NCBI GenBank assembly: GCA_964624415.1
Contig: CAZUWR010000002.1
Location: forward strand, 76,454-140,453
Length of the DNA: 64,000 nucleotides
Source of the DNA: an uncultured Bdellovibrionales bacterium
GTDB lineage: Bacteria; Patescibacteriota; Minisyncoccia; Moranbacterales; UBA1568
Direction: 5' to 3'
The notes beneath the pieces were generated by a model that was given only the letters and a program-made list of their open reading frames with translations, was not told the origin of the DNA and ran no database searches. Position 1 is the first letter of the stretch. Every line of letters begins with the position of its first letter. Below, one piece after another: positions 6,946 to 35,868 of the stretch. The position numbers and the translations under genes are program-made.

Positions 6946-7086
6946 TTAGTAACTGTCTAAAATCTTTCCGTTTTTTGCTTTTGCATAGTGTTTTTTCGAA
7001 CTGCCGGGTCAAAGACGAAAGGCGAGAAAAAATACTATGCAAAAGCCAAAAAACAAGAAGGGAAAGATTTTAGACAGTTACTTAGT
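6946..7086. repeat. Structured repeat family B, copy B1 (~140 bp near-perfect hairpin), located in rpmH-dnaA spacer
   Basis: ttagtaactgtctaaaatctttccgttttttgcttttgcatagtgttttttcg [loop aactgccgggtcaaagacgaaagg] cgagaaaaaatactatgcaaaagccaaaaaacaagaagggaaagattttagacagttactaa. Copies at 25098 and 35730. Confidence 0.85.
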
Positions 7087-7103
7087 AAAAGAGAGGTATC
7101 TTC

Positions 7104-7112
7104 TTATCCACA
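7104..7112 (+). promoter_or_regulatory. DnaA box (TTATCCACA, perfect consensus)
   Basis: Exact 9-mer in rpmH-dnaA intergenic region, ~100 bp upstream of dnaA start. Confidence 0.6.
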
Positions 7113-7135
7113 CAAGGAGCTCACTTGTGCACAAG

Positions 7136-7144
7136 TTATCCACA
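7136..7144 (+). promoter_or_regulatory. DnaA box (TTATCCACA, perfect consensus); with AT-rich stretch 7150..7210 = candidate oriC/DUE
   Basis: Second exact 9-mer 32 bp downstream of first, same orientation, followed by AT-rich segment before dnaA ATG at 7212. Confidence 0.6.
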
Positions 7145-7211
7145 ATACCCTCTATTCCTCCTTTTTCGCCTATGCTATACTTTTGATACTGACCATAAAT
7201 AAGACAGTCAT

Positions 7212-8663
7212 ATGAGCAACGAAGAGCTTTGGAAAGCGGTTTTAGGGGAGTTAGAGCTTTCCATATCCAAAGGCGAATTCAATACATGGTTCAAAAACAC
7301 TTCCATCGTCTCGCACGAAAATGGGCGTGTGGTTATTAGTGTTCCGAGCGGTTTTGCGCGTGAGTGGCTTGAGAATAAGGTGAATATGCATATTCTGCAG
7401 TCCCTGAAGCATTTGCAGAGCGATATTACCGAGTTTTCATGCGTTATCAATGCGCCTGAACAAAAATTGACGCAGACACAGTCATTTACCCAGACACAGA
7501 CCGGATTCGTGTCTTCGCATGGGGCTTCTGCAAACTCGCCATCACAACCGCAAGCGACGCCGTCGTATCCTGCCGGCGCTGCCGTGCCGTATTATCCGCC
7601 TCAAGCGCATCCCGTTCAAACCGCAACCAAAGCCAAACAAGAGCACGCCCTCAATCCGCGCTATACATTTGAGAATTTTATTGTCGGTGAGAATAATGAG
7701 TTGGCGAGAGCTGCTTGCTATGCGGTATCGCAGAATCTCGGACAGTTGTACAATCCGATTTTTATCTACGGTGGCGTGGGACTGGGTAAAACACACTTGT
7801 TGCAGTCTGTTGGCAATGAGGTGTTGAAACATCACCCCGATATACGCATCAAGTATACGACGGCCGATTGGTTTACGGGAGAATTAGTGGAATCCATTCG
7901 CAATCAGAAAGTGGCGGAATTTAAAGAAGCCTATCAGAAAGCCGACCTTCTCATTATCGATGATATCCAATTTCTTTCGGGACGAGAGAAGACGCAGGAT
8001 GAATTTTTCCATATTTTCAATACGCTTTACCAAGCCAATAAGCAGATTGTACTGAGTAGTGACAGACCGCCGCAGGCCATCCCGACACTTGAGGATCGTC
8101 TACGTTCGCGTTTCCAAGGCGGAATGATCGCGGATATTGGCAGACCCGACCTTGAGACTCGTATGGCTATTTTAAAAATCAAGACCGCTGAGAGACATTT
8201 TTACCTCGATGATGAGGCGGTGCGTTTTATTGCTGAAAATGTAACTAATAACATCCGTGAACTCGAGGGAGCGCTTAATCGCATTATTGCTTCCTGTGAG
8301 TTCCATAAGATCGTGCCGACCATCGCATATATCAAAAAAACGCTCGGCTCTATTATCGCCAATACCAAACGCGTCGTTAGTCCGGAGCGCATTATGAAGA
8401 TGACAGCTGAGTTCTATAATATCGAAGAGGATGATCTGACACGCAAGGGGCGCAAGAAGGAAGTGGTACACCCGAGACAAGTGGGAATGTATCTGATGCG
8501 TATGGAGCTTCAAACCTCATTCGCGGCTATCGGAAAGTATTTCGGGGGTCGAGATCATACCACGGTGCTGCATGCCTGCGAGAAGATCAAGGATGATTTG
8601 GATGAGAACTTGCGGCTCAAAGAAGAGGTCACGAGTTTGCGGGAGAAGTTGTATCGGGAGTAG
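7212..8663 (+). CDS. dnaA: Chromosomal replication initiator protein DnaA
   Basis: 483 aa. AAA+ Walker A (GGVGLGKTHL). C-terminal DNA-binding domain. Q/T/P-rich linker. Confidence 0.95.
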   Translation: MSNEELWKAVLGELELSISKGEFNTWFKNTSIVSHENGRVVISVPSGFAREWLENKVNMHILQSLKHLQSDITEFSCVINAPEQKLTQTQSFTQTQTGFVSSHGASANSPSQPQATPSYPAGAAVPYYPPQAHPVQTATKAKQEHALNPRYTFENFIVGENNELARAACYAVSQNLGQLYNPIFIYGGVGLGKTHLLQSVGNEVLKHHPDIRIKYTTADWFTGELVESIRNQKVAEFKEAYQKADLLIIDDIQFLSGREKTQDEFFHIFNTLYQANKQIVLSSDRPPQAIPTLEDRLRSRFQGGMIADIGRPDLETRMAILKIKTAERHFYLDDEAVRFIAENVTNNIRELEGALNRIIASCEFHKIVPTIAYIKKTLGSIIANTKRVVSPERIMKMTAEFYNIEEDDLTRKGRKKEVVHPRQVGMYLMRMELQTSFAAIGKYFGGRDHTTVLHACEKIKDDLDENLRLKEEVTSLREKLYRE

Positions 8664-8673
8664 GCAGACGAAA

Positions 8674-8785
8674 GGATAGGAATGAAGACTCTTTTTTGGA
8701 GGCTTGCGAGACTGTCGAGGTGAGCACGAGGAATTTTTCAGCAGAAAAATATCCGTACTCCGAAAAAGAGTCTTCATTCCTATCC
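8674..8785. repeat. Structured intergenic repeat family A, copy A3 (dnaA-dnaN spacer)
   Basis: 26 bp arms ggataggaatgaagactcttttttgg / ccgaaaaagagtcttcattcctatcc. Core identical to A1. Confidence 0.85.
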
Positions 8786-8812
8786 GATATATCACTCATA
8801 ACATTATTTATT

Positions 8813-9961
8813 ATGAAACTCATTTGCACACAGGAAAATTTACGAAAAGCAATTGCGGCAGCAGAGCGCGCCGTGGGTCGTCAGAGCACACTGCCGATTT
8901 TGGGCAACTTTTTGCTCGAAACCGAAAACGGACGACTCAAACTTTCCGCAACCAATCTTGAGATCGGTGTTATCGCGCGCGTCGGAGCCAAGATCGAATC
9001 CGACGGACGCATCACCATTCCTGCCAAACTGATGAGCAATTTTATCAGCAATCTTCCCTCGGGAGACACCATCGTGTTGGAATCGGAAGGACAGTCCTTG
9101 AAAATATCCAGCGGCGGATACTCGGTCAAGATCAAGGGATTGGACGCCCAAGAATTCCCATTGATACCGCAGCATCATGGGACGCAATTTCTCACTATTC
9201 CGGCGCAGCCACTGCGCATCGCGTTGTCCAAGCTCTTGCCGTGCGTCGCGCTCAATGAAGCTCGTTTGGAATTGACCGGTGTCAATATCATTTTCGCAGA
9301 AAACTCGATGTGTTTGGCCTCGACGGACAGTTTCCGTTTGGCGGAAGAGAGCATCGCTTTGGATGGCAATAACGTCGCCAGTGTCGCCTCCTCATTCCCT
9401 CAAGGATCATGCATTATTCCAGCCGCTACCTTCTCTGAGGTATCCCGAGTGATCAGTCCGGAGAGCAAGGAAGTCAAGCTTGCTTTCGAGGAAAATCAGA
9501 TTTTTTTCGAGGTGGACGGTGTACAAATTCTCTCGCGCCTAGTGAGCGGAAAATTCCCGGATTACAAGCAAATTATTCCCGAGCAATTCGCTTTGCAGGC
9601 CATTGTGTCTCGCGAGGACTTACTTCGCGCGGTCAAAATCGCGACCGTCTTCACCTCGCAGACCTCGCAGGAGCTTGTGTTTCGCGTTGATCCGCAGGCC
9701 GGACAGATCGTCATTGAGTCCCGCTCGCAGGAAATGGGAGAAAATCAAACTATCTTGCAGGCAGATATTGCCAGTGATATCCCGCTTGAGATGGTGTTTA
9801 ATCCAAAATATATCCTCGATGGTATCAATACGATAGCGACGTCCCGTATCGCGCTTTTGGCCAATGAAAGCACCACGCCAGCGGCGCTGAAAACAGTCGA
9901 CGAGGAAACCGGAACCGTATCGGGGGAGTATGTGTATATCATTATGCCGATCCGGAATTAA
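8813..9961 (+). CDS. dnaN: DNA polymerase III beta subunit (sliding clamp)
   Basis: ORF 8696..9961. N-terminal 39 codons overlap repeat A3, so start set at MKLICTQENLRKAI (ATG 8813), the typical DnaN N-terminus. Confidence 0.85.
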   Translation: MKLICTQENLRKAIAAAERAVGRQSTLPILGNFLLETENGRLKLSATNLEIGVIARVGAKIESDGRITIPAKLMSNFISNLPSGDTIVLESEGQSLKISSGGYSVKIKGLDAQEFPLIPQHHGTQFLTIPAQPLRIALSKLLPCVALNEARLELTGVNIIFAENSMCLASTDSFRLAEESIALDGNNVASVASSFPQGSCIIPAATFSEVSRVISPESKEVKLAFEENQIFFEVDGVQILSRLVSGKFPDYKQIIPEQFALQAIVSREDLLRAVKIATVFTSQTSQELVFRVDPQAGQIVIESRSQEMGENQTILQADIASDIPLEMVFNPKYILDGINTIATSRIALLANESTTPAALKTVDEETGTVSGEYVYIIMPIRN

Positions 9962-9966
9962 AATAG

Positions 9967-10089
9967 AGTTCCTTTGAGTATATATCTTCCGCCGGGTACA
10001 GGATATTTTTCTGCTGAAAAATTCCTTGCGCGCTCGCCCCGCCGGGCTGCGCGAGCCCCCTTGCGAAAGACATATACGCAAAGGAACGT
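9967..10089. repeat. Structured intergenic repeat family A, divergent copy A4 (dnaN-DUF721 spacer)
   Basis: Arms agttcctttgagtatatatcttc / aagacatatacgcaaaggaacgt. Core retains ggatatttttctgctgaaaaattcc and GC-rich hairpin cgctcgccccgccgggctgcgcgagc. Confidence 0.7.
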
Positions 10090-10103
10090 CACTCTTTAAG
10101 GCT

Positions 10104-10406
10104 ATGCAAAAAATCGGAAGCCTTCTCATGCAAACCTATCAGGAGCGTGTTGCCAAGATAGTCCTTGACGACCAGACGGTTTTCTTTATCTTCCGAAAGA
10201 TTGTCGCTCAAGAATACGGTGCTCGCGGGGAACGGTATATCGAACCGAGGTATTATAAAAACAAGAAGCTGTTTGTTGCGGCCAAAAATTCGCTCTGGAT
10301 GAGCGAGTTGCAGCTCAGTCGGCAACATTTTATGGATGCTATCAACAAAGAGCTCGGCTCTGAAGCGGTGGTAGAAATAAAAGTAGAGAGCAGTTTTGCT
10401 TCGTAA
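10104..10406 (+). CDS. DUF721 (DciA-like) protein
   Basis: ~100 aa from MQKIGSLL. Pattern F.KIVAQEYGARGERYIEPRYYKNKKLFVAAKNSLWMSELQ...INKELG fits DUF721 consensus. Position right after dnaN is typical. Confidence 0.55.
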   Translation: MQKIGSLLMQTYQERVAKIVLDDQTVFFIFRKIVAQEYGARGERYIEPRYYKNKKLFVAAKNSLWMSELQLSRQHFMDAINKELGSEAVVEIKVESSFAS

Positions 10407-10416
10407 TAAAAAATAT

Positions 10417-10986
10417 ATGGAGAATGTTGAGAATAAGGTCGTTCAAACGCAGGAGACTTTTCTTGAAAGCCTCGCATTTCGCATAGCCAAAGGCCTGGGA
10501 TCGGCCGGATCGCTTATCGTGCACACTTTCTTATTCATCGGTATTTTCAGCTTGCGCTGGGTTGGATTCAATGTGGAGCAGATTCTTTTGATACTAACAA
10601 CCGTCGTGTCGCTCGAAGCGATCTATATGTCCATCTTCATCCAGATGACGGTCAACCGTCATGCGGAAGGACTCTCCGAGGTGCATCAGCATATCGAAGA
10701 AATATCCGATGATGTGGATGAAATTCAAGAGGACATCGAGGATATCCAGACCGAAGTGAAAGAGATCGGTGATGATGTGGAGGGCATTCAGACGGAGGTG
10801 AAAGAGATTGGAGAGGACGTGGATGAGATCTCCGAGGACATCGAGGATATCCAGGAAGACATTTCCGAGGATGCGACGGAAGAGGAAATCGACAAAAAAC
10901 ACCACGACGCTACGAACGAAAAATTGGAAAAAATTGAAGAAACCTTGCATCGACTGCTGGCGGATATCGAGGGGTTGAAGAAGTAG
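10417..10986 (+). CDS. DUF1003-like membrane protein with acidic tandem-repeat C-terminus
   Basis: Two TM helices and conserved LEAIYMSIFIQMTVNRHAE segment. C-terminal 42-nt tandem repeats (10690..10880) encode EEISDDVDEIQEDIEDIQTEVKEIG-type repeats. Confidence 0.55.
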   Translation: MENVENKVVQTQETFLESLAFRIAKGLGSAGSLIVHTFLFIGIFSLRWVGFNVEQILLILTTVVSLEAIYMSIFIQMTVNRHAEGLSEVHQHIEEISDDVDEIQEDIEDIQTEVKEIGDDVEGIQTEVKEIGEDVDEISEDIEDIQEDISEDATEEEIDKKHHDATNEKLEKIEETLHRLLADIEGLKK

Positions 10987-11083
10987 AATTGAAATACAAA
11001 GGTTTTTCAAAATACCTATGCAAGTATAAGCGTAGTATATACAGGTTTATTAACTACCTACATAGATTTAAAATTCTGATACA

Positions 11084-11116
11084 TAAAAAACAGACTTATG
11101 AAAAAGTCTGTTTTTC
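11084..11116. terminator. Bidirectional intrinsic terminator between convergent genes
   Basis: aaaaaacagactt-atgaaaa-agtctgtttttcg. 9 bp stem, A-run and T-run on either side. Confidence 0.65.
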
Positions 11117-11136
11117 GCATTGAAAGCAAGCATTCC

Positions 11137-11382: not shown

Positions 11383-11486
11383 ATATTTGTTTTGAAAAAG
11401 GCGGATTATGCGTGCGAATAATCTATCGACCCTTGTGTTTAGTATATCGATAAAAAAACATCGATGCAAAGAAGTGGCGAGCGGCT

Positions 11487-14027
11487 TTAAAAATGCACTG
11501 ATACCGATTTGGAATCGCTGACGGTATTGCCATTGTCGTCGGTGAGGGTGGCTTTGACGCTGAGAGTGGAGTTGTTTTTTTCGGTAGGGATGGTGTAGCT
11601 TATTGAAGGATTACTGCTGCCGCTCGAGCCGATGTCGGTTCCGTCGACCGAGAACACGACGCTCTTGGTGCCGTGCGGCGCGTCGGTGCTGGTTGATAAT
11701 GTTATAGTATTGGATGCAGTGTCACCTGGTACAGAGAGGCTGATACTTGGCAGGTACTTGGAGAAATCACTTTCCTTGCACTCATTGGTTGGAACATCGC
11801 CCACGATGATATGCTTGCTATTATCCTTGTCGTTGTACCATTCCTTGACGCCCTTTTCCCATTGTTTGTATTGCGAATCATTGCTTGGTTTGTCGGGAAT
11901 AGCCCCGCGAGGATCGCTTGGATTGACGTAAAAAAGGATATCGTGGCCGCTGACAAAGGTTTTTTTGTCCGCCTCACTGTCGGGACAGTATTTATTAGCG
12001 AGACAGTAAGTATCTTTTTTCCCCGGTATGGAGCAGACTTTTAGGTCTTTAGCCTCGTCGAGTTTGCCATCAAGCATCGGTTTATTGGTTTTGCCGTCGC
12101 TATCGCCGATCTCATCTTCGGGATTGTATTTCGGGAAGTCTTCGATAGCGGAATTGGCGAGAGCTTTGTCCATAAAGGCGCGCCAAATAGGAGCAGCAAC
12201 GACAGATCCGTCAGCGCCTGTGGACATCTCTTCATTTTTGCTATTGCCCACCCAGACACCGGCCGAGAGCGATGGGGTGTACCCGATAGTCCAGGCATCA
12301 TGAAAACCATTGGTCGTACCGGTTTTGGCAACCAGCGGACGATTGTCGGATCGGAGAGGGTTGTTGTCACCGAATACCCACGCACGGTTGTCGTTGTTGG
12401 AAAGCACTGAGTCGAGCATGGCGACATATTTTTCATCAACGACGCGTTCGCCAGGAGTGTCTTTGTATTCCTCCAGGATAGCGCCCTTACTATCTTCGAT
12501 TTTCATAATGGCGGTTTGCGGGTGCTTCACACCGCCGGTTGCCAATGTTCCGTAAGCGCTGACGTGATCGAGGAGTTTAACCTCACCGCCACCGAGCACG
12601 AGCGAGAGACCGTAACGATCAGGCTCATTGAGCGAAGTGATACCGAGGTTTTTCGCCATAATGATAGCGTCCTTGGCACCGGCCAGATAGAGTGTTTTGA
12701 CGGCGGGAATATTGAGCGATCCGCCGAGCGCTTTAGCTAAGGAAATCGGGCCGTGGAATTTGCCATCGTAGTTATTCGGAGTATAATCCTTGCCGTCTTC
12801 GGTGGAAAAATTGGTAGCAACATCATACAGCATCGTTTCCGGAAGGTATCCTTTGACAAAAGCTGTTAGGTAAACATACGGCTTAAAGGAAGATCCTGGT
12901 TGCCGATCGCGTATAGCCACATTGACCTGACCGTCGATGGAGGCGTCCCAGTAATTTTTGGAACCGACCATAGCGAGAATCTGACCTGTTTTGGGATCGA
13001 TGGCGACGAGTGCTGCATTGTTGGCTTTATAGCGGGTGTTTTTTGCTGCACCGTCAGCGACGGCTTTTTCAGCCGCTTGCTGTTTATCCCAATCGAGCGT
13101 GGTGTAGATCTTCAGACCGCCTTGCTCAATGGATTGATCGCCGTATTTGGAAGCGAGGTATTCTTTGATGAACATTACGAAATGCGGCGCCTGGATGTTT
13201 TCAGCCTGCGGTTTGAGTTTTGCGAGTACGTCGATTTGTTTGGCGGTATCAGCTTGGTCTTGGGTGATATAGCCGAGCGTGGCCATTTTTTGTAAAGCGA
13301 ACTCTTGGCGTCCTTTGAGCGCGTCGGTGTGCGAACCATAGGGCGAATAGTAGGTGGGTGCGTTCGGAAGCGCTGCCAGCAGAGCTGATTCATCCAAAGA
13401 AAGGTCTCTCGCTGATTTACCGAAAAAGGTTTGTGACGCAGCCTCAATACCGTACGCATTGGATCCGTAAGGGATTTCATTGAGGTACATTGCGAGAATC
13501 TCATCTTTGGAGAACTTCGTTTCCATCTCAATCGACAAAATAACCTCCTTTATTTTTCGGGTAATGGTCTTCTCCGGAGAGAGGAGGGAGTTTTTGACGA
13601 ATTGCTGAGTGATGGTGGACCCTCCTTGCCTTGCGCCTCGATGTAACACATCGGCGAGGATGGCCCGGATAATAGAAGTGAATTTGATACCGTGATGCGA
13701 ATAGAAATCCTGATCTTCAAGGGTAATGGTGGCGGTACGCACTACCTCTGGCATATCCGAAAAAGAGATGAGCGTGCGTTTTTCTTCCCCGTGCACCTCA
13801 TAGAGCAGGTGATCACCGGTTCGGTCGTAGATCTTGGTCGATTCGGCGATAAATCGATCATTGACCTTGCCAGGGCTCGGTAGGTCTTTGGCGAAGTAGA
13901 TGAAGAAACCGACAAGCAAAACCAGCGAGCCGATGGCAAGACCGGCGATGCTCATCCAAGTTATTTTCCAGACTTTCTTACGCATGTGGCGGCGTCTCGA
14001 TAACGGTCCCGGGGATGTTGTATCCAT
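11487..14027 (-). CDS. Penicillin-binding protein 1A (class A: GT51 transglycosylase + transpeptidase) with long C-terminal extension
   Basis: EDQDFYSHHGI, GGSTITQQFVKN transglycosylase motifs. SxxK/SxN-type transpeptidase region. N-terminal TM anchor. Start may be internal Met at 13985. Confidence 0.85.
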   Translation of the reverse strand: MDTTSPGPLSRRRHMRKKVWKITWMSIAGLAIGSLVLLVGFFIYFAKDLPSPGKVNDRFIAESTKIYDRTGDHLLYEVHGEEKRTLISFSDMPEVVRTATITLEDQDFYSHHGIKFTSIIRAILADVLHRGARQGGSTITQQFVKNSLLSPEKTITRKIKEVILSIEMETKFSKDEILAMYLNEIPYGSNAYGIEAASQTFFGKSARDLSLDESALLAALPNAPTYYSPYGSHTDALKGRQEFALQKMATLGYITQDQADTAKQIDVLAKLKPQAENIQAPHFVMFIKEYLASKYGDQSIEQGGLKIYTTLDWDKQQAAEKAVADGAAKNTRYKANNAALVAIDPKTGQILAMVGSKNYWDASIDGQVNVAIRDRQPGSSFKPYVYLTAFVKGYLPETMLYDVATNFSTEDGKDYTPNNYDGKFHGPISLAKALGGSLNIPAVKTLYLAGAKDAIIMAKNLGITSLNEPDRYGLSLVLGGGEVKLLDHVSAYGTLATGGVKHPQTAIMKIEDSKGAILEEYKDTPGERVVDEKYVAMLDSVLSNNDNRAWVFGDNNPLRSDNRPLVAKTGTTNGFHDAWTIGYTPSLSAGVWVGNSKNEEMSTGADGSVVAAPIWRAFMDKALANSAIEDFPKYNPEDEIGDSDGKTNKPMLDGKLDEAKDLKVCSIPGKKDTYCLANKYCPDSEADKKTFVSGHDILFYVNPSDPRGAIPDKPSNDSQYKQWEKGVKEWYNDKDNSKHIIVGDVPTNECKESDFSKYLPSISLSVPGDTASNTITLSTSTDAPHGTKSVVFSVDGTDIGSSGSSNPSISYTIPTEKNNSTLSVKATLTDDNGNTVSDSKSVSVHF

Positions 14028-23053: not shown

Positions 23054-23112
23054 AATGTTGTCGTTTGTATCTTTACGAGAGCAACGTAAAGAGATACGTG
23101 AAATTAAAAGGC

Positions 23113-23229
23113 GGGAATGATAAGTGGATATTATTTGCTGAGTACGTGCATTTTTCTGCTGAAAAATTTCTCGTGCTCGACCCGTCGGGCTTCGCAGGCC
23201 TCCGCAAACAATATCCGCTTATCATTAAC
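23113..23229. repeat. Structured intergenic repeat family A, copy A5 (rpsT/ruvA divergent spacer)
   Basis: Arms gggaatgataagtggatattatttgc / gcaaacaatatccgcttatcattaacc. Core tgagtacgtgcatttttctgctgaaaaatttctcgtgctcgacccgtcgggcttcgcaggcctcc. Confidence 0.8.
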
Positions 23230-23454
23230 CGCAATGAGACACAACGGACTTCCTCTTTTGTACCATAACGTTTTCTTTTTGGCAAGTATGGGGGGAAATG
23301 GTAAACTGGATTATATAAACTTTTCCAAGGCTTTTCCGTTTGAGTACAGGGCGAGGCGCAAGTGAGGAGCGTAAATAAGCCGTACATGTGGTACGACGTT
23401 GCGCACCGGAACTTGCAACAAAGCATTGTGCCAAATGGGAAAGCCTACGCCGTT

Positions 23455-24027: not shown

Positions 24028-25101
24028 ATGGAAACTACCACACGAGAGCAGATGCGAGTATTGCAAAGCCATATAGCGGATGGCGGTTTTTTGCAATCCA
24101 ACGAGTGGCTTCACTTTCAGGAATTGCTCGGACATCGCATTTTTCATTTCGAGGCGGACGATTGTTTCGCCAATATCATCGAGTACACACTTCCACCAAT
24201 AGGGAAATACTGGTATATTCCTCGCGGACCGGTCATCATCAATCAACAATTAACAAACAACAATCACCAAACAGCAATCAACAGACAGCAGACGACAAGT
24301 AATCATAAACCATCAGAAGCCTTTTTACACAGCATTGTCGTAAAGGCGAAACAGGAGGGAGTCGGCTGGATCCGCATAGAACCCGCGAAAGAAAGTGATC
24401 TGTCCGTATGGGAACAATTTCCAGAAGTGTCTATCAAAAAAGCCGCACACGATACACAACCGCGCGAAATCCTGGTGATGCCGATCGATGGGACACAAGA
24501 AGAAGTCCTGGCACGGATGAAATCGAAAACCCGTTATAATATCCGCCTCGCCGAAAAGAAAGGCGTCAGAGTCTTTACCTCTCACGAACAAGAACATATC
24601 GATACTTTCTGCGATTTAGTGGCTATCACGGCCAAACGCGATGGTATTGTGCCGCACCCGCGCGAGCACTATCGGAAAATGTTGCAGGCGATTCCGGATG
24701 CTATGCTCAAGCTTTATCTTGCCGAGTATGAGGGGACTATCGTCGCAGCCAACCTCGTTGTGTTTTTCGGAACCTATGCGACTTATCTACATGGCGCATC
24801 GGGCAATATCCATCGTGAGGTGATGGCACCGTATCTTTTGCAGTGGCGGCAGATACAGGATGCCAAAAAAAACGGTTGCGAACAGTACGATTTCGGCGGT
24901 GTTAAAACGAAGGATGCGAAGAATACCTGGGGAGGCATCACTCGCTTCAAACAAGGATTCGCGCCCGCGCAGGATGCGACGCATTTTCCGGGCAGCTACG
25001 ATGTCGTACTCGCTAGCAATCGATACCGGGCCTATATCGCATTGCAAACTCTGAAAAAAGCGTATAGAATGGTGAGAAGAATAGTGCGCAATATGTGCTA
25101 A
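24028..25101 (+). CDS. FemXAB-family aminoacyltransferase (peptidoglycan interpeptide bridge formation), with Q/N/T-rich in-frame insertion
   Basis: 357 aa. FemAB-like region HGASGNIHREVMAPYLLQWRQIQDAKKNGCEQYDFGGV. Insertion QQLTNNNHQTAINRQQTTSNHKP at 24241..24300 encoded by CAATCAACA-type repeat. Confidence 0.55.
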   Translation: METTTREQMRVLQSHIADGGFLQSNEWLHFQELLGHRIFHFEADDCFANIIEYTLPPIGKYWYIPRGPVIINQQLTNNNHQTAINRQQTTSNHKPSEAFLHSIVVKAKQEGVGWIRIEPAKESDLSVWEQFPEVSIKKAAHDTQPREILVMPIDGTQEEVLARMKSKTRYNIRLAEKKGVRVFTSHEQEHIDTFCDLVAITAKRDGIVPHPREHYRKMLQAIPDAMLKLYLAEYEGTIVAANLVVFFGTYATYLHGASGNIHREVMAPYLLQWRQIQDAKKNGCEQYDFGGVKTKDAKNTWGGITRFKQGFAPAQDATHFPGSYDVVLASNRYRAYIALQTLKKAYRMVRRIVRNMC

Positions 25102-25237
25102 GTAACTGTCTAAAATCTTTTCGTTTTTTGCTTTTGTATAGTGTTTTTTCGAACTGCCGGGTCAAAGACGAAAGGCGAGAAAAAATACTATCAAAAGCCA
25201 AAAAAACAAGAGGGGAAAGATTTTAGACAGTTACTAA
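25098..25237. repeat. Structured repeat family B, copy B2
   Basis: Fills entire gap between stop of FemX-like gene and next ORF. Same orientation and loop as B1 with few substitutions. Confidence 0.85.
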
Positions 25238-26038
25238 ATGCTCAAGAGAATGTTTATTCGTCACATTAACTACAACCGTATGATCGACAAGGATTTGCAG
25301 GCTGTCGGCTTGCAGGAAAAGGAAGCTAAAGTCTATTTGGCAGCGCTTGAGCTGGGCAAGGGGACGGCGCAGCAAATCGCGCGAAAGGCGGATCTGAAGC
25401 GTCCGACCACCTATGTAATCGTGGAAGAATTGATGCAGCAGGGATTGGTCTCAAGCTACTATGAGGGCAAGAAGCAATACTTTGTCGCCGAGCACCCGGA
25501 TCGATTGGGGGATTTGCTCAAAAAGGAACAAGAAGAAGTCGAGAAAAAGCAGGCGCACCTGAAGGCTATCTTGCCGCAGCTCCAGTCTATCAACAATCGC
25601 CAGACCGATAAGCCGGTGGTGAAGTACTATGAGGGCAAAGAGGGGATTTTGACGATGGTAGCAGAGCACGCAAAATCAAGCTTTGGGAAAACTGCTTACT
25701 CGGTGCATTCACGTGATATGTTGAATAAAGTACTCTCTGTAAAGGAGACGGAGGGAATTGCTAATGATAGAGTGGAACATCATATCAAGATGAAGTCTTT
25801 GTACACCTGGTCTCAGGGAACATTACCGAATCGTTCAGATACAGAAGGAATACGTTTAAGCGAAACTGACCTAGGTGTGAGTTGCGATATCGCGGTATTT
25901 GGTGATCGTATTCGAATAGCTTCTTTTAAGGATCGTTTGATTGGGGTGGTTATTGAAGATAAGGAAATCGCTAAATCATTTCAGGCTGTTTTTGAACTTG
26001 CATGGAAGTGGGCGCAAGAGCATCAAATAGATAAGTAG
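25238..26038 (+). CDS. TrmB-family (sugar-specific) transcriptional regulator
   Basis: N-terminal wHTH (LGLQEKEAKVYLAALELGKGTAQQIARK) and C-terminal TrmB-like domain. True start probably an internal Met (25250 or 25280), since 25238 abuts repeat B2. Confidence 0.55.
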   Translation: MLKRMFIRHINYNRMIDKDLQAVGLQEKEAKVYLAALELGKGTAQQIARKADLKRPTTYVIVEELMQQGLVSSYYEGKKQYFVAEHPDRLGDLLKKEQEEVEKKQAHLKAILPQLQSINNRQTDKPVVKYYEGKEGILTMVAEHAKSSFGKTAYSVHSRDMLNKVLSVKETEGIANDRVEHHIKMKSLYTWSQGTLPNRSDTEGIRLSETDLGVSCDIAVFGDRIRIASFKDRLIGVVIEDKEIAKSFQAVFELAWKWAQEHQIDK

Positions 26039-26471: not shown

Positions 26472-27737
26472 ATGCATACCTTCAAGTCCCTCATCCCGCA
26501 ATCCGTCAAGAACCTCTATCACCTCGCGCAGGCTGTGTTGGCGAATCTTTGGTACGGCTTTCCGTCACGCAGACTCACCATTATCGGGGTGACGGGGACG
26601 GATGGCAAGACGACGACCGTGCAATTGCTCAGCAGGATTTTCGAGGAAGCTGGCAAAAAAGTGGCTATGGCCTCGACCATCAATTTCAAGCTCGGTGACA
26701 AGGAATGGGTCAATACCTCCAAGCACACGACGCTCGGGAGCTTCGCGACACAGAAGTTCTTGAGGCAAGCGTCGGATGAGCAGTGCGATATCGTGATTAT
26801 CGAGACCGCTTCGCATGCGTTGGATCAGTATCGGGTCTGGGGTGTACGATATGCGGTCGCCGTCATTACCAATGTGACACGCGAGCATCTGGATTACCAC
26901 AAGACGATGGCACGCTACCGTCGTGCGAAAAAACGGCTTTTCGATAAAGCGAAAGTAGCAGTAGTCAATCTGGATATGGACAGTCCCGAGGAATTTTTGC
27001 AAGGGAAGTATGAGAAAACCATCACCTACAGCACACAAGAATCATCTGCACAGGCATTGGCGCATGACATACGACTTCGTTTGGATGGCTCGACCTTCGC
27101 TGTTGATGACCAAACATTTGACCTGGCGCTTCCCGGAATGTTCAATATCGAAAACGCCCTGGCAGCTATCAGTGTCGGTATCACTCAGGGCGTGAGTTTG
27201 GAAGTGATGGCATGTGCTTTGGCGAAAGTGACCGGCGTTCCGGGCCGTATGGAAAAAATTACCAATACTCGAGGTATCGAAATACTTATCGACTATGCTG
27301 TGACCCCCAATGCGCTTGAAAAGTTGTATGCCCTCGTGTCCGAGATGAAGCCATACAAAACATCGAGAATCATCGCGGTATTTGGGGCGTGCGGAGATCG
27401 TGATCGCGGCAAGCGGCCGATGATGGGCGCTATTGTATCATCCTACGCGGATGTGATTATCCTGACCAATGAAGATCCGTATTTCGAAAATCCGGAACGT
27501 ATCGTCAATGAAATATCCAAGGGAATTACGGGTAAAAAACGTGGCAAGACGTATTTTCACGTTATGAACCGTCGCAAAGCCATCCAGAAGGCCCTTAAAT
27601 TGGCCCAGGAGGGGGATATCGTTGTGATTACGGGTAAAGGTGCCGAAGAGACTATGGCTATCGGCAGAGAGCGAATTTCGTGGAATGATAAGCGAACGGT
27701 GCAAGAGATTTTACAAAAAGAGAATGTGCGCGTTTGA
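26472..27737 (+). CDS. murE: Mur ligase family protein (MurE-like UDP-N-acetylmuramoyl-tripeptide synthetase)
   Basis: GVTGTDGKTTT P-loop, Mur ligase central and C-terminal domains. Start at MHTFKSL (26472). Confidence 0.7.
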   Translation: MHTFKSLIPQSVKNLYHLAQAVLANLWYGFPSRRLTIIGVTGTDGKTTTVQLLSRIFEEAGKKVAMASTINFKLGDKEWVNTSKHTTLGSFATQKFLRQASDEQCDIVIIETASHALDQYRVWGVRYAVAVITNVTREHLDYHKTMARYRRAKKRLFDKAKVAVVNLDMDSPEEFLQGKYEKTITYSTQESSAQALAHDIRLRLDGSTFAVDDQTFDLALPGMFNIENALAAISVGITQGVSLEVMACALAKVTGVPGRMEKITNTRGIEILIDYAVTPNALEKLYALVSEMKPYKTSRIIAVFGACGDRDRGKRPMMGAIVSSYADVIILTNEDPYFENPERIVNEISKGITGKKRGKTYFHVMNRRKAIQKALKLAQEGDIVVITGKGAEETMAIGRERISWNDKRTVQEILQKENVRV

Positions 27738-27856
27738 GTACAGTTCTAGGCGCAATCGAGGAGCGCAAGTAAGCCGTACAAAAAGTACGGTGTCGCGCAC
27801 CTCCGATTGGAACGACGAAATGTGCCAAACGAGTACATTCTAAGACGATGAAATAA

Positions 27857-29194: not shown

Positions 29195-29202
29195 CTTCGC
29201 GT

Positions 29203-30093: not shown

Positions 30094-30095
30094 AT

Positions 30096-30596
30096 ATGGA
30101 TACGTATGTCTGGACGAGCCACGCGCAGTGGAAAATGAAGTATTATGGCCTCAGCAAGCAAAAAGTGACAGGAATTATCCGCCGTCCGGATCGGGTGGAA
30201 AAAGGCATCGCCGGCAACGGTACGATAGCGGTGATGCAGGCCGTCTCGCCGAAAATGATTGATGGGAAAAAGGTCTGGAAGCAGGAGGTGTGGACGATGT
30301 ATCAACGGACAAAGAACAATAAACAAAAAACAATAAACGAAGAACAAAAAACAGCGAACAATAACCGGCAGTATAATGATGGTCATCTTGAAGATGAAGG
30401 CAGATTGCTCTGCTTCGGTGGCGATCGAGGAATACCAACATCGATTGAACATTTCAAAGAGGTTTTGCGAAAGAAATCGTGCACACAAGGAAGTATCAAA
30501 ATCATCAGTGCCTGGCGCTACCCGGGAGTGAGCCCGAAGAATAGTCCTTTACTGGAGGCGATGTTTGAAGAGGCGATGGAGCCTTTGGGGGCTTGA
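30096..30596 (+). CDS. Hypothetical protein with internal Q/N/K low-complexity insertion
   Basis: 166 aa. Segment RTKNNKQKTINEEQKTANNNRQYN (30300..30375) is encoded by the CAATAAACGAAGAA-type repeat shared with tgt. Confidence 0.4.
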   Translation: MDTYVWTSHAQWKMKYYGLSKQKVTGIIRRPDRVEKGIAGNGTIAVMQAVSPKMIDGKKVWKQEVWTMYQRTKNNKQKTINEEQKTANNNRQYNDGHLEDEGRLLCFGGDRGIPTSIEHFKEVLRKKSCTQGSIKIISAWRYPGVSPKNSPLLEAMFEEAMEPLGA

Positions 30597-31711: not shown

Positions 31712-32737
31712 ATGAAACAACAAAGTATTAAAACCTTATTAGGCGCCATTTTTTTCCTGGCACTTTTCTCAATCCCTTGCCTGTCATGGGCAGTGGGTGA
31801 CACCAATAACGCTCTCATTGCGACATCGACGGCCAATGGAGGAAATCCAACGGCTTACGGTGTCGGATATGCTGATGGAGGGAAGGTCAATTTCCAATAT
31901 GCCCCAACGTCTATCAACACACCAGTTCAACAGAGAACACAGGCGGCAACAAATGCAGGTTCATTTGTTCCGGTTCCTGGGGTTATGAATGAATTTGTGA
32001 TAAATAGTGATGCGGCGGAAAAAGCCAAATTGCTTAAGCTATGGGCAAATCGCGCATGCGGTCCAAAGGCTTATACGGGGGGAAAATTCAACACAAGAAC
32101 AGTTGAACTTTCCAATACCGAAGGTGATGAAGATGTTGATGTTTTGGTGAATTTCTCACCTCTTCCCGGTTTTATTGTAAATGAAACAGAAACGATGCCA
32201 GGAAGCGCATTTGTTATGCATCATCAGGATGTGAATTGGAATGATAAATTCACTTGTCTTGCAGTCGTCAATATCGATCCAAAAGATAATCATCAACAAT
32301 TGGATCATGCTGTATTGGAAAATGCCGCAGGTGCTTTTGGATCATCAGCGGTCTTCGGCCATTACAGCAAGATCGTCATGGTTTACACAACAGGATCAGC
32401 TCGGTTAAGATCGGGTTCGACCAGCGATGTCGAAACGCTCGGACTTACCGTTTCCAGTTCCGGCGCACCGGGAACAAGCAGTTTTGTTCAGGGCGCGATC
32501 GGTTATGGTGACACGGATGGTACGGTAGCTCATACGGATATTCCATCGTTAGGACTCGTCGTATTGGCGGTTGATAATGTCAATGGTAAGCGTTTGCAAA
32601 GTTATGCCCAATTCGAGCAACAACTAACGAATGCGTATATTGGTCAACAGGTTGAAATAAAAAAACAAATGAGTGGCGTTACTACATCTGCAGAGCCAGT
32701 TGCCACACAGGCTGCCGGTTCAAGTCAGGTTAAGTAA
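31712..32737 (+). CDS. Secreted hypothetical protein
   Basis: Signal peptide, 341 aa, no recognisable family. Confidence 0.45.
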   Translation: MKQQSIKTLLGAIFFLALFSIPCLSWAVGDTNNALIATSTANGGNPTAYGVGYADGGKVNFQYAPTSINTPVQQRTQAATNAGSFVPVPGVMNEFVINSDAAEKAKLLKLWANRACGPKAYTGGKFNTRTVELSNTEGDEDVDVLVNFSPLPGFIVNETETMPGSAFVMHHQDVNWNDKFTCLAVVNIDPKDNHQQLDHAVLENAAGAFGSSAVFGHYSKIVMVYTTGSARLRSGSTSDVETLGLTVSSSGAPGTSSFVQGAIGYGDTDGTVAHTDIPSLGLVVLAVDNVNGKRLQSYAQFEQQLTNAYIGQQVEIKKQMSGVTTSAEPVATQAAGSSQVK

Positions 32738-32859
32738 CTCGCATTTATTTTGTGAACAGGGAGCTTTGCGGTCAGTGAATATCATTTTCACTGACCGCTA
32801 TTTTTTTTGTCTTTTTTAGGCTATACTGGGAACATAATCGGCTTTTCAAATACATTCCT

Positions 32860-34296
32860 ATGAAACATACTAAAATCGTCGCCACTATCGGGCCGGCTTC
32901 GGAGAGCAAAGACGTCTTGCGGCAGATGGTGCAGGCGGGGATGAATGTCGTCCGTCTCAATTTTTCCCACGGCGAATACGATTGGCATGGGGGCATCATC
33001 AAGATTGTCCGCGAACTGTCCGAGGAATTGGAGCGGCCGATCGGTATCTTGGCGGACATCCAGGGGCCTCGCATCCGCTTGCAGGCGGCGCAGGAAATGA
33101 CGGTCAAACAAGACGATGAGCTTATCGTGAGCGATATCGCCTACCGCGAGACAATGGCGATGGAGGTTTCCACGAAAGCTATCTTTCTCGATCAGCCGAA
33201 AATGAGCGATGATATCGCAGTGGGGCATTTGCTTTTGATCGAAGACGGGCTTTTGCAGCTTCAAGTCGTGTCCAAAGAAGCGGGCATACTACATACACAA
33301 GTGCTCAATGACGGCATGATCAAGAACCGCAAGGGCGTCAATTTGCCGGATTCGAAAATCAATCTGCCGGTGCTGACGGAGAAGGACAAAAAGGATCTGC
33401 GGTTCGTCGTCGAGCAGGGCGTGGACTATATCGGCCTCTCGTTTGTGGGATCGGCGGAAGATATCGCCTGGGTGCGTGAGGAAATGCGCAAAGCGAAGCC
33501 CTCTGCATCCGATGCGGAGCTTCCGAAAATCGTGTCCAAAATAGAGCGCAAAGAAGCGATGAAGAATCTGCAGGAAATCGTCGAAGCTACCGATGCGGTG
33601 ATGGTGGCTCGCGGGGATTTGGGTATCGAGATGCCCGAAAGCGAAGTGGTGTTGTTGCAGAAAGAAATCATCGCCGCCAGTATGAGGCGTGCCAAACCGG
33701 TCATCGTGGCGACGCAGATGATGAAAAGTATGACAGATAATCCTCGCCCGACGCGTGCCGAGGTGTCTGATGTGACCAATGCGGTCATCGACCATGCCGA
33801 TGCCGTGATGCTCTCAGAGGAATCCGCGATGGGGAAGTATCCGGTGGAAACGATCGCGATGATGACGGAAATCCTCGAAAAGACCGAAAGCTCGCCTTTC
33901 GACGATGTCCGCGAGGCGATGCCGGTCACCACGTCGTATTCGGCCTATGCAGCCTTAGTACGCAGTATTTACGAGCTGACGATGAGCTTTGAGGCAAAAG
34001 CCGTCCTGATGCTCAGTATGAGTGGTCTGACAGCGCGCCTGATGTCACATTTTCGTCCTGATGCGCATCTCTTCGCCGCGACCAATGTCCGCAAGACCTA
34101 TAATCAGCTCGCGCTGGTCTGGGGGGTTGACGCTTATCTTTTTGAGGGGGATAATGATTTGGACAGCTTTACGGACAAATTGGCCGACGGAGCCAAGGCA
34201 GACGGACGCCTGATAGCCGGGGATAAGATCGTGATCTGCCGTGGAAAAAGCGCCGATGACGAGCTGCAGCTGGTCGGGATGAAAGAGGTTGTATAG
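32860..34296 (+). CDS. pyk: Pyruvate kinase
   Basis: MKHTKIVATIGPASES... MVARGDLGIE... canonical PK motifs, 478 aa. Confidence 0.95.
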   Translation: MKHTKIVATIGPASESKDVLRQMVQAGMNVVRLNFSHGEYDWHGGIIKIVRELSEELERPIGILADIQGPRIRLQAAQEMTVKQDDELIVSDIAYRETMAMEVSTKAIFLDQPKMSDDIAVGHLLLIEDGLLQLQVVSKEAGILHTQVLNDGMIKNRKGVNLPDSKINLPVLTEKDKKDLRFVVEQGVDYIGLSFVGSAEDIAWVREEMRKAKPSASDAELPKIVSKIERKEAMKNLQEIVEATDAVMVARGDLGIEMPESEVVLLQKEIIAASMRRAKPVIVATQMMKSMTDNPRPTRAEVSDVTNAVIDHADAVMLSEESAMGKYPVETIAMMTEILEKTESSPFDDVREAMPVTTSYSAYAALVRSIYELTMSFEAKAVLMLSMSGLTARLMSHFRPDAHLFAATNVRKTYNQLALVWGVDAYLFEGDNDLDSFTDKLADGAKADGRLIAGDKIVICRGKSADDELQLVGMKEVV

Positions 34297-34457
34297 TCAA
34301 ATATCAATCAACAAAAAGCAGTCAACAGGGAACAAATATCAATCAACAGTCAACAGAAAACAAGAAGCAATTAACAATAAGCAAACAACGGATGCTCATG
34401 AGTATTCACGCGCCGTTGCTACCTGTTAATTGTTTATTGTTAGCTGTTAACTGATAA

Positions 34458-34542
34458 GGAGGGGTCGCATAGTGGCCTAGTGCGCTTGCTTGGAAAGCAA
34501 GTGTGGGGCAACCCACCGGGAGTTCGAATCTCCCCCTCTCCG
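34458..34542 (+). tRNA. tRNA-Ser (anticodon GGA)
   Basis: Cloverleaf by eye: acceptor GGAGGGG/CCTCTCC (one G-U), anticodon arm CTTGC-TTGGAAA-GCAAG (anticodon GGA), long variable arm, T-arm GGGAG-TTCGAAT-CTCCC. CCA not encoded. Confidence 0.85.
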
Positions 34543-34558
34543 CATTTTTAAAACAACT

Positions 34559-35116
34559 ATGTCCATAACCGAAATATTCCTGACAGGATTTAGTCTTTCT
34601 TTGGATGCGGTGGCCATCGCTCTGGCGGCGGGCGCCCTGCACCGTATCACGCCCAGCCAGGCGCTCAAGATAGCGCTTTTTTTCGGTGCTTTTCAAGCCC
34701 TGATGCCGCTTTTGGGGTGGGCGGTCGGGCTGGGATTCAAGCATATTGCGGACGCGTACGGACACGTCATCGGTTTTTTGCTCCTTTTCGGTGTCGGGGT
34801 GAATATGCTGCACGAGACGTTTACTAAGGAGACACAAGAGGATATCGAGAATGAAAAGCATCTGGCGGAAACCAAAATACTGACGGTCATGGCGGTGGCG
34901 ACCAGTATCGATGCTTTGGTGGTGGGTATCACTTTCAACTTCGTTGCCGTGAATATTCCGATGGCGGTGGGGATTATCGGCGCGGTCACGTTTGTCCTCT
35001 CGCTTGTCGCGGTCTATGCTGGAGGAAGCGTCAAACAAGGTGCGGGAAAAAAGATGGAGATTTTTGGCGGGCTTATCCTCATAGCACTCGCTTGCAAAAT
35101 ACTTTTCGGTGGGTAA
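34559..35116 (+). CDS. mntP: Manganese efflux pump MntP (DUF204)
   Basis: Start at MSITEIFLTGFSLSLDA. Two DUF204 repeats. ORF-track N-extension overlaps tRNA-Ser. Confidence 0.75.
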   Translation: MSITEIFLTGFSLSLDAVAIALAAGALHRITPSQALKIALFFGAFQALMPLLGWAVGLGFKHIADAYGHVIGFLLLFGVGVNMLHETFTKETQEDIENEKHLAETKILTVMAVATSIDALVVGITFNFVAVNIPMAVGIIGAVTFVLSLVAVYAGGSVKQGAGKKMEIFGGLILIALACKILFGG

Positions 35117-35222
35117 TAAGCGCGATCAGAACGGGGTTTGAGTGTGTACATGAGAGCTGGTATAGACAGTTGCAAAACGCATGATAGAATACAAGTACTC
35201 CTAATATTTTTACAATACATCT

Positions 35223-35720
35223 ATGCAATCGGCACCCATCCCCCCGTTCGAGCAAGAACGCGTGTATGCTTTGCATAAATTGCATCTTTTGGATACGGAT
35301 CCGGAGGAGCGCTTTGATACGTTTACTGCAGAAGCGGTCAAAAGATTCTCTGTAGCCATTTCCACTATCTCGCTTCTCGATGAGGATAGGGAATGGTTCA
35401 AGTCGGTGTGCGGCACCGATGCCAAAGAAGGTGCGCGCGATATTTCTTTTTGCGGGCATGCGCTCGTGTCGGAGGTGGTGACCATTATCGAGGACACGCT
35501 CGAAGACGAACGCTTCGCCGATAATCCGATGGTGATAGGGGAGCCCTTTATTCGTTTCTATGCTGGAAAATCCCTCTATAATAACAAGAGCCGCTTGCCG
35601 GTTGGCGTGTTTTGTATCAAGGACACGAAGCCCAGGAAAATGAGCGCGCAGGATATGGAGGATTTTCTCGATCTGGCACATCGGGTGGAAGTAGAGTTGA
35701 ACAAGCCGTCCGGTGAGTAG
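35223..35720 (+). CDS. GAF domain protein
   Basis: 165 aa. GAF-like pattern (ISLLDEDREWFKSVCG...HALVSEVVTIIED). Confidence 0.6.
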   Translation: MQSAPIPPFEQERVYALHKLHLLDTDPEERFDTFTAEAVKRFSVAISTISLLDEDREWFKSVCGTDAKEGARDISFCGHALVSEVVTIIEDTLEDERFADNPMVIGEPFIRFYAGKSLYNNKSRLPVGVFCIKDTKPRKMSAQDMEDFLDLAHRVEVELNKPSGE

Positions 35721-35729
35721 CGCAAACAG

Positions 35730-35868
35730 CAAGCGACCGTCTGAAATATTTCCGTTTTTTGCTTTTGTATAGTGTTTTTTCGAACTGCCGGGTCAAAGAC
35801 GAAAGGCGAGAAAAAATGCTATCAAAAGCCAAAAAACAAGAGGAAAAAGATTTCAGACAGTTGCTAAA
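35730..35868. repeat. Structured repeat family B, copy B3
   Basis: Same hairpin. Arm substitutions are compensatory (gtctGaaat / atttCagac versus gtctAaaat / atttTagac in B1/B2). Confidence 0.85.

Follow-up and report, generated by a model that had tools for sequence, protein, structure and literature searches.

The DNA analysed here, a stretch of 64,000 nucleotides referred to below as the window, contains the same near-perfect hairpin three times, one copy lying in the rpmH-dnaA spacer that is a candidate replication origin. What kind of element is this, and does its position say anything about its role? The original prediction had offered a MITE, a structured small RNA, or a bidirectional terminator or protein-binding cruciform. 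From the analysis reported here, we consider, with a probability of about 85%, that the three hairpins are copies of a MITE that has recently spread in one landfill Candidatus Moranbacteria lineage. The element is small, AT-rich and non-coding; it has inverted ends and flanking direct repeats, its copies are dispersed and are present or absent at orthologous sites, and the mismatches in its stem show no strand bias.

Architecture of the three copies

All three copies are on the + strand, at positions 6949-7081 (B1, 133 bp), 25102-25234 (B2, 133 bp) and 35733-35864 (B3, 132 bp). These limits, set by the inverted repeats together with the flanking duplications, refine the coordinates given at first and reduce the length from about 140 bp to 132-133 bp. 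B1 (GTAACTGTC...GACAGTTAC) has the rpmH promoter on one side and, on the other, the DnaA boxes that precede dnaA; B2 is located between the FemAB gene and that of a TrmB-family regulator, and B3, the most diverged of the three, between the stop codon of a GAF-domain gene (35718-35720) and the rplT terminator.

Almost the whole element consists of an inverted repeat, about 51-55 nt in one arm and 58-62 nt in the other, around a unique centre of 24-28 nt. The arms had been described as about 58 nt each; they are in fact unequal, the right one being longer by a conserved segment of about 6 nt (CAAGAGG) that is bulged out. The 24-nt loop AACTGCCGGGTCAAAGACGAAAGG was found exactly three times in the window, only on the + strand, with 0 occurrences expected in shuffles, as predicted for a loop common to all copies in one orientation. 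It lies at 6999-7022 (+) in B1, with counterparts at 25152-25175 in B2 and 35783-35806 in B3, and two small stems (GCC/GGC and GTC/GAC) are predicted within it. Taken as 28 nt, the centre shows no difference across the three copies.

Further copies and empty sites

The search for further copies that had been proposed yielded five, with flanks unrelated to the window, on contigs of landfill metagenome 3300029288. Six of the eight copies are co-oriented with an adjacent gene; those in L003 and L005 are antisense between co-directional genes, and the one in L004 is truncated, its outer right arm being lost. No further copy was present in about 90 kb of DNA from relatives, the loop 22-mer gave 0 matches in GTDB representative genomes and 0 in viral contigs, and a blastn search of plasmid and phage records gave no match. 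Independent assemblies of the window's own strain (L006, L012) break inside the element, as they do at multi-copy repeats.

Comparison with related genomes lacking the insertion, also proposed at the outset, revealed that the sites of B2 and B3 are empty in sister-lineage contigs (88-92% nucleotide identity). For B2, homology with L015 and L016 (88%) is lost at 25103 and regained at 25252, and in two further sequences (L017 and L018, GCA_028711705.1) FemAB is followed by TrmB after a 38-bp spacer. For B3, the GAF-rplT spacer is empty in L013 and L014, whose L20 protein is identical and whose nucleotide identity is 92% up to window position 35866; there the homology ends, at most 2 nt from the right end of the element. 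A clean empty site was not obtained for B1: the rpmH-dnaA spacers of four relatives contain, in place of the element, an unrelated, non-repeated segment of 100-150 bp, and the spacer segment holding B1 is unalignable among relatives.

Terminal inverted repeats and flanking direct repeats

The terminal inverted repeat GTAACTGTCTAAAATC terminates B1 and B2 on either side and recurs, with up to 2-4 changes, at the ends of the other copies; within the window this 16-mer occurs solely as the inverted ends of the copies. B1 is flanked by TTA on the left (6946-6948) and on the right (7082-7084), and B2 by TAA on both sides (25099-25101 and 25235-25237). In B3 the left flank is CAA (35730-35732), which matches the right TAA (35865-35867) at two of three positions. 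For the six full copies, the flanks read TTA/TTA, TAA/TAA, TAA/TAA, CAA/TAA, TTG/TTA and TCA/TTA, so that the TWA direct repeat matches at 15 of 18 positions, perfectly in three copies and at two of three positions in the rest. TWA was the best-scoring 3-bp register among the boundary offsets tried, and the sole comparable score (21/30) came from a 5-bp CTWAG register which contains the same TWA core. A TA duplication of the IS630 type was ruled out, with 5/12 at the element boundary. T..A being self-complementary, a duplication can be told from a longer inverted repeat by the middle base only; this base matches directly, and not in inverted form, in five of the six copies (p about 0.1 taken alone). 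The flanks thus give moderate support to a target-site duplication of the kind expected for a MITE.

The five terminal nucleotides vary more on the left than on the right (GTAAC, GCGAC, GCAAC, TTAAC, CTAGC). GCGAC, the diverged left end of B3, is also found at the empty B3 site of the relative; should this coincidence be more than chance, B3 has been given a wrong left boundary.

B2 had been reported to fill exactly the gap between a stop codon and the next open reading frame. On the left this holds, the flanking TAA being the stop codon of FemAB (24028-25101). On the right, TrmB probably does not begin with the ATG at 25238, because homologues start at a conserved ATGATCG (window 25280); an exact look-up of the window TrmB protein returned no record.

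Coding capacity and search for a transposase

The element, 132-133 bp long in a window whose GC content is about 47%, has no conserved open reading frame. The minus-strand frames of 60-70 aa had been regarded as by-products of the repeat, and this is what we found: the frame shifts between copies through differences in A-run length (1-nt indels), and among 5.8 billion proteins none shared words with the repeat-encoded peptide, a route that also yielded no further copies.

No transposase was detected in the 64 kb window, where Pfam searches on 20 open reading frames gave housekeeping families only. Similarly, neither a cognate transposase nor a full-length insertion sequence with these ends was found in the window, in GTDB species representatives, in viral contigs or in plasmid and phage records. 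The end 19-mer had 0 matches in viral contigs and six in GTDB representatives (a conserved SAR86 locus accounting for four, an FCPU426 bacterium and an Acidobacteria MAG for one each); these were rejected as the parent element and attributed to chance, since the taxa are unrelated and no convincing inverted partner was seen.

As a MITE, the element is ordinary selfish DNA and, at 132-133 bp and with no coding capacity, would derive from a DNA transposon. A transposase encoded elsewhere would bind the identical ends GTAACTGTCTAAAATC, excise the element and paste it into a TWA trinucleotide, which would be duplicated on both sides; after insertion, the copies would decay neutrally. Movement would then be of the cut-and-paste type, in trans, and neighbouring genes may be affected. 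Since a 3-bp TWA duplication is the mark left by DDE transposases of the IS5-family / PIF-Harbinger type, we infer an enzyme of this type; the link is drawn from the duplication, no parent element having been found.

Folding, covariation and conservation of the hairpin

On the + strand, B1, B2 and B3 each fold as RNA into one long hairpin, with energies of -72, -60 and -55 kcal/mol (z = -12.6, -9.8 and -8.5) and 50, 53 and 48 Watson-Crick pairs out of 55, respectively. The paired substitution of B3 noted earlier (gtctGaaat with atttCagac) is present in the sequence, as is a second one (agCgac with gttGct). However, the view that such compensatory changes are strong evidence for selection on the hairpin was not supported by the comparison of eight copies: both sides had changed in three pairs, where shuffles gave 2.0±1.1 and 148 of 500 shuffles were as high, and the covariation score was 0.057 against 0.054 after shuffling. 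In this alignment 94.4% of the cells are paired and 21 are unpaired; the variable mismatches comprise 14 G·U, 12 A·C and 9 others. The balance between G·U and A·C indicates that neither strand is favoured as RNA. The long hairpin very probably results from the inverted repeats and is not an RNA structure kept by selection.

Variation is nevertheless uneven along the element. Invariant pairs amount to 18 of 27 in the inner stem against 8 of 22 in the outer stem, and variation is greater in the outer arms than in the inner arms and the centre. This is at odds with pure neutral decay, though partly a matter of ascertainment, as the loop sequence served to find the five extra copies. That the inner stem and the invariant apical 24-28 nt are under purifying selection, the element or some copies such as B1 near the DnaA boxes being co-opted in a genome-reduced CPR bacterium as a protein-binding hairpin or a small RNA, appears unlikely; if true, the element would be a mobile carrier of a functional module rather than plain selfish DNA.

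Also unlikely is a structured small RNA or cis-acting RNA, transcribed from the + strand, in which hairpin and apical module are selected and the copies are paralogous RNA genes or UTR elements. The folds are stable, and the + strand is better than the - strand by 7-9 kcal/mol in all three copies; one G·U pair is fixed in 8/8 copies, three pairs are changed on both sides, the apical 24-28 nt are invariant and most copies share the orientation of an adjacent gene. Yet recent common descent, and the use of the loop as search key, account equally well for the fixed G·U pair and the invariance of the loop. The lack of covariation above shuffles, the balanced mismatches with their 21 unpaired cells, the two antisense copies and the truncated one all speak against an RNA, as does the absence of the element from orthologous spacers of close relatives. 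Finally, at the gathering score no Rfam family matched the element, and at a relaxed threshold only generic miRNA-precursor hairpin models were hit, on both strands, with scores of a third to half of their thresholds.

Signals in the neighbourhood of the copies

Two perfect DnaA boxes (7104-7112 and 7136-7144, + strand) follow B1 and lie outside the element. The distance of 18 bp first given was counted from an earlier end coordinate; from the end of the inverted repeat it is 22 nt, and B1 is placed 19-22 nt upstream of the boxes. Of the proposal that B1 sits in an origin spacer, the DnaA boxes stand, whereas the GC skew shows no sign change anywhere in the window. A further possibility is that a MITE copy has been locally co-opted, B1 as a cruciform or protein-binding module that modulates dnaA/oriC function, or the TAGACA that faces outward in the ends as a -35 element for neighbouring genes. 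Besides the boxes, a degenerate DnaA-box-like TTATTCGTC is found beside B2, with a perfect TTATCCACC in L015, a promoter-like TAGACA-16 nt-GAGAAT spans the right end of B2 and its flank, and the centre is more conserved than the ends. However, in the relatives, which lack the element, the DnaA boxes and both promoters (rpmH and dnaA) are retained, so that it is not needed there, and the segment holding B1 cannot be aligned among them. Neither B3 nor the metagenome copies have a DnaA box nearby, the promoter match is 9/12 and seen in one copy only, and the skew gives no sign of an origin in the spacer. We give this co-option little credence. A role of the hairpin as functional RNA or as part of the replication origin is not shown by these data, and the element on its own has no bearing on origin function.

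A palindrome of the IS200/IS605-derived PATE or REP/RAYT type, mobilised in single-stranded form by a Y1 (HUH) and not a DDE transposase, is very improbable. In its favour, the element is almost wholly one hairpin, the substrate form of such enzymes, the greater variability of its left 5 nt may point to a left flank taken from the target, as with IS608, and GCGAC recurs at the empty B3 site. However, insertion without target duplication would be expected whereas a TWA direct repeat flanks the copies, REPs measure 20-40 nt against 133 nt here, the two ends are genuinely inverted copies of each other for more than 50 nt in a single palindrome with a 55-bp stem, where IS200/IS605 elements have subterminal hairpins that differ between left and right, and no Y1 transposase was present among the window open reading frames scanned.

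The suggestion of a bidirectional intrinsic terminator was also dismissed, the stem being AT-rich, with no T-run after the hairpin on either strand and no copy flagged as terminator-like. A separate, canonical bidirectional intrinsic terminator (35878-35913) follows B3, and it stands at the empty site too.

Comparison with known elements

Tourist/PIF elements show a preference for TWA targets. Canonical Harbinger elements are grouped with the IS5 family and duplicate 3 bp on insertion (PMC12730594, PMC2213677). The MITE described here resembles Tourist-like MITEs and the PIF-Harbinger and IS5-family elements (ISL2/IS1031/IS427 groups) in being small, AT-rich and non-coding, in its terminal inverted repeats, in the 3-bp TWA (TTA/TAA) duplication and in insertion in or beside genes. 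It differs from them in that about 80% of its length is inverted repeat, instead of ends of 10-30 nt, and in its host, a CPR bacterium.

Among bacterial MITEs, the Correia elements of Neisseria and RUP of Streptococcus pneumoniae are intergenic, about 105-155 bp long and present in tens of copies. When transcribed they form a long hairpin, their ends may carry promoter-like hexamers, and they are present or absent between close strains. In size, intergenic copies, hairpin, end hexamers and strain polymorphism the present element is similar; it has no sequence similarity to them, and they differ in duplicating TA, in IS630-type transposition and in inverted repeats of about 26 nt.

The Porphyromonas gingivalis MITEs BrickBuilt and MITEPgRS derive from IS5-family ISPg elements (PMC4596501). 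Like our element they are bacterial MITEs; they are defined by IS5-family-like ends and occur in 10-20 copies per genome, many of them degenerate or truncated (PMC4596501). Their ends, however, are identical or nearly so to those of a resident insertion sequence, their duplications vary in length and they contain internal tandem repeats, whereas a simple hairpin is found here. Between the end GTAACTGTCTAA and the ISPg4 end GAGACTGTTGCA (PMC4596501), 7 of 12 positions agree, including a shared ACTGT, which is a weak resemblance.

Enterobacterial ERIC/IRU and REP/BIME sequences are likewise imperfect palindromes, found in intergenic regions that are transcribed, and their presence varies between relatives. 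REP units measure 20-40 nt, are RAYT-mobilised and lack a duplication, while ERIC is about 127 bp with no clear duplication; neither is related in sequence to the element.

Genomes of CPR/Patescibacteria, of about 1 Mb, are usually called streamlined, and in the literature searched no paper describing MITEs in this group was found. A young MITE implies an active transposase somewhere in the community and, being insertion-polymorphic, would provide a marker for strain-level dynamics of landfill Moranbacteria. The element also explains the assembly breaks in L006 and L012 and the spurious calls of 60-70 aa reading frames. The 64 kb window holds at least three small repeat families.

Genomic setting and fold of the family B copies

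The three window copies of the hairpin repeat family B, all on the + strand, are located at 6949-7081 (B1), 25102-25234 (B2) and 35733-35864 (B3) and can be aligned with one another over about 140 nt. As the original prediction had it, each folds into one long hairpin and the loop is shared in the same orientation: a 24-nt centre (AACTGCCGGGTCAAAGACGAAAGG) is present at exactly three places in the window, always on the + strand, with 0 occurrences expected in shuffles. The + strand RNA folding energies of B1, B2 and B3 were -72, -60 and -55 kcal/mol (z-scores of -12.6, -9.8 and -8.5), the - strand fold being weaker by 7-9 kcal/mol. A conserved extra CAAGAGG in the right arm bulges out of the hairpin.

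B1 is situated between rpmH (6709-6846, - strand) and dnaA (7212-8663, + strand), past the rpmH promoter and 22 nt ahead of two perfect DnaA boxes (7104-7112 and 7136-7144), which had already been noticed. B2 has a FemAB-family gene (24028-25101) on its left and a TrmB-family regulator gene on its right, and B3 separates a GAF-domain gene (35223-35720) from the rplT terminator. DnaA homologues place the host in Candidatus Moranbacteria (CPR/Patescibacteria), the nearest relatives of which come from Southern Ontario landfill metagenomes.

The gene order and the DnaA boxes agree with the earlier naming of the rpmH-dnaA spacer as an origin, but the GC skew is positive across the whole window, without a switch at dnaA, so that the spacer is a presumed origin only. 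A second perfect pair of DnaA boxes was observed on the - strand at 61024-61032 and 61045-61053, 12 nt apart, in or at the edge of an AI-2E transporter ORF (60743-61756). Given this second pair and a window without a skew switch, any placement of oriC in this genome is tentative.

Dispersed copies and empty sites

Family B is very probably (about 85%) a MITE, a small non-autonomous mobile element, which was one of the roles first proposed; further copies with unrelated flanks, empty sites at B2 and B3, and flanking TWA (TTA or TAA) repeats all point to it. It is a new MITE family, of a thoroughly known kind; no MITE description for the host phylum (CPR/Patescibacteria) was found in the literature searched.

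The suggested search for further copies was made with a 22-mer of the loop, which had no match in 185,579 GTDB species representatives or in viral contigs and was found on five contigs (L001-L005) of landfill metagenome 3300029288. The flanks of these copies resembled neither each other nor the window, and the element alone matched (88-97%). The L002 copy is cut off by the contig end. That of L004 (2242-2385, - strand) is truncated, its outer right arm being gone; ...AAATAAGAGT runs directly into the start codon (MIIGHQKIRERL...) of the following gene, whose immediate upstream region is the element remnant. Furthermore, where the window's own strain was assembled independently, contigs broke off within the element (L006 and L012), as happens with multi-copy repeats.

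Comparison with relatives, also proposed at the outset, revealed that the B2 and B3 sites are empty. In the relatives' contigs L013/L014, L20 is identical to that of the window and the DNA is 92% identical up to 35866, a homology limit 2 nt from the right end of B3; their GAF-rplT spacer is devoid of the element and keeps the terminator. In L015/L016 (88% identical), the FemAB stop leads straight into the TrmB upstream region with no element, homology ending at 25103 and restarting at 25252; L015 has also undergone a small separate deletion. In the more distant L017/L018 (GCA_028711705.1) the FemAB-TrmB spacer is 38 bp; taking L017 as the outgroup, the spacing left in the window once the element is subtracted is ancestral (16 vs 15 nt). 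B2 had been described as exactly filling the gap between a stop codon and the next ORF. Its left TAA is indeed the ancestral FemAB stop codon, and hence target sequence, not element; however, judging from the alignment, the ATG at 25238 abutting B2 is probably fortuitous, and the likeliest TrmB start is the conserved ATGATCG (25280).

For B1 there is no clean empty site: in four relatives, which lack the element, both the rpmH promoter and the DnaA boxes are conserved, and an unrelated, non-repeated stretch of 100-150 bp separates them. The favoured explanation for the closeness of B1 to the DnaA boxes is that it inserted where the spacer evolves fast and is dispensable. No family B copy turned up in about 90 kb of DNA from relatives.

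The empty B3 site of L013 (~489-510, against window 35721-35737) reads ...CACATGCGAC|AAAAAAAC, with GCGAC exactly where the diverged left terminus of B3 has GCGAC. The match may be fortuitous; alternatively, it may be a footprint of excision, or B3 may owe its left 5 nt to the target. If it is not chance, the left boundary of B3, as well as one of the two 'compensatory' pairs in this copy, would need re-reading. At the B2 site, L015 has a perfect DnaA box (TTATCCACC, 1827-1835) 2 nt past the FemAB stop, upstream of the TrmB-family gene; the same place reads TTATCCATT in L017 and a degenerate TTATTCGTC in the window (25254-25262). The TrmB-family regulator may be under DnaA-dependent control in the relatives.

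Element ends and putative target duplication

Side-by-side comparison of eight copies set the element limits at GTAACTGTCTAAAATC...GATTTTAGACAGTTAC. The three flanking bases on the left and right are TTA/TTA for B1, TAA/TAA for B2 and L001, CAA/TAA for B3, TTG/TTA for L003 and TCA/TTA for L005, that is, 15 matching positions out of 18 over six copies. When seven boundary offsets were scanned with repeat lengths of 2-5 bp, TWA was the best 3-bp register. Because T..A is self-complementary, a direct repeat can be told from a longer palindrome by the middle base alone, which matched directly in five of the six copies and as the complement in none. A 5-bp CTWAG register was nearly as good (21/30) and would account for the odd right terminal A of L001, while a TA duplication fitted poorly (5/12).

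PIF/Harbinger elements prefer TWA targets, and the 3-bp-duplicating groups of the related IS5 family likewise produce a 3-bp TWA duplication. There is an even chance that the mobilising enzyme is of the IS5/Harbinger type. Duplications of 3 bp are made by PIF/Harbinger elements (PMC12730594, PMC2213677), and an IS5-family end, GAGACTGTTGCA (PMC4596501), has ACTGT in common with the element end (7/12), a lead rather than a test. Searches of the window, the GTDB representatives, viral contigs, and plasmid and phage records yielded neither a transposase nor a full-length parent.

The right end bears an outward-facing TAGACA, a 5/6 match to the -35 hexamer, and symmetry puts the same hexamer on the opposite strand at the left end. 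At B2 (25224-25251, + strand), TAGACA is followed 16 nt downstream by GAGAAT, a promoter-like site (9/12). Such hexamers could create hybrid promoters.

Test of selection on the hairpin

A co-opted function of the centre is unlikely, the one hint of it being a weak conservation gradient: never-varying pairs amount to 8/22 in the outer arms vs 18/27 in the inner arms, and a 28-nt centre is identical in the three window copies. A rough count on these copies (the metagenome ones were found via the loop) gave 0/28 differences in the centre vs 14/103 elsewhere, p ~0.04.

Selection on the hairpin itself had been deduced from a paired substitution in B3. This substitution is present, together with a second pair (agCgac / gttGct), but the deduction is not supported. 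In the eight-copy alignment, 94.4% of cells were paired and 21 unpaired; 3 pairs had changed on both sides, a number that 148 of 500 column shuffles equalled or passed (mean 2.0±1.1), and the covariation score was 0.057 vs 0.054. Once a G·U fixed in all copies was set aside, mismatches were wobbles on the + strand in 14 cases, on the - strand in 12 and on neither in 9; this balance indicates that the better + strand energy is due largely to the one inherited G·U. These data are consistent with a young DNA palindrome that is decaying neutrally. RNA selection is not required for two compensated positions within a single copy, as B3 might descend from a variant master copy or have undergone mismatch correction in an extruded hairpin.

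At the gathering score, Rfam gave no family for family B; a relaxed threshold returned solely miRNA-precursor models, on both strands and with scores that reached only a fraction of the respective cut-offs. The L003 and L005 copies lie antisense between co-directional genes. An intrinsic terminator, another of the initial options, is rejected, no copy resembling one and a separate, genuine terminator adjoining B3.

Other repeats

Family A is another hairpin repeat, built around a conserved ~70-nt core (GGAGGCTTGCG.AGCCCGACGGGGCGAGCACGAGGAATTTTTCAGCAGAAAAATATCCGTACTCC). Its copies are at 1956-2070 (+), 8674-8785 (+), 4901-5017 (-), ~23096-23240 (-) and ~9960-10093 (-) in the window, at 11452-11571 and 12795-12859 in L007, at 10185-10276 and 11475-11583 in L009, and at 1715-1806 in L010. 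The outer arms (25-30 nt) pair within each copy but vary from one copy to the next; among only five copies, pairing survives two-sided changes at 17 of the 46 predicted pairs, a covariation far above that of family B. In contrast to family B, this repeat is shared with relatives, which carry it in the dnaA-dnaN and dnaN-dciA spacers. Rfam gave no match for it.

CAA-rich repeats of 7/14-nt periodicity (CAATCAACAATTAACAA...) occur within housekeeping genes (FemAB, 24238-24316; argS, ~38652-38700; ileS, 46817-46851 and 47463-47497; tgt, 54858-54906) and in spacers (30296-30372 and 34298-34409), and code for Q/N/T-rich inserts. The FemAB insert (INQQLTNNNHQTAINRQQTTSNHKP) is absent from the closest homologue (336 aa), and window 24250-24343 is skipped in the DNA alignment with L015. 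A third repeat of ~100 nt is found at 23337-23435 and 27731-27829 (76% mutual identity) and, at 77-78%, in the relatives' contigs L015 (125-221) and L009 (11922-12016).
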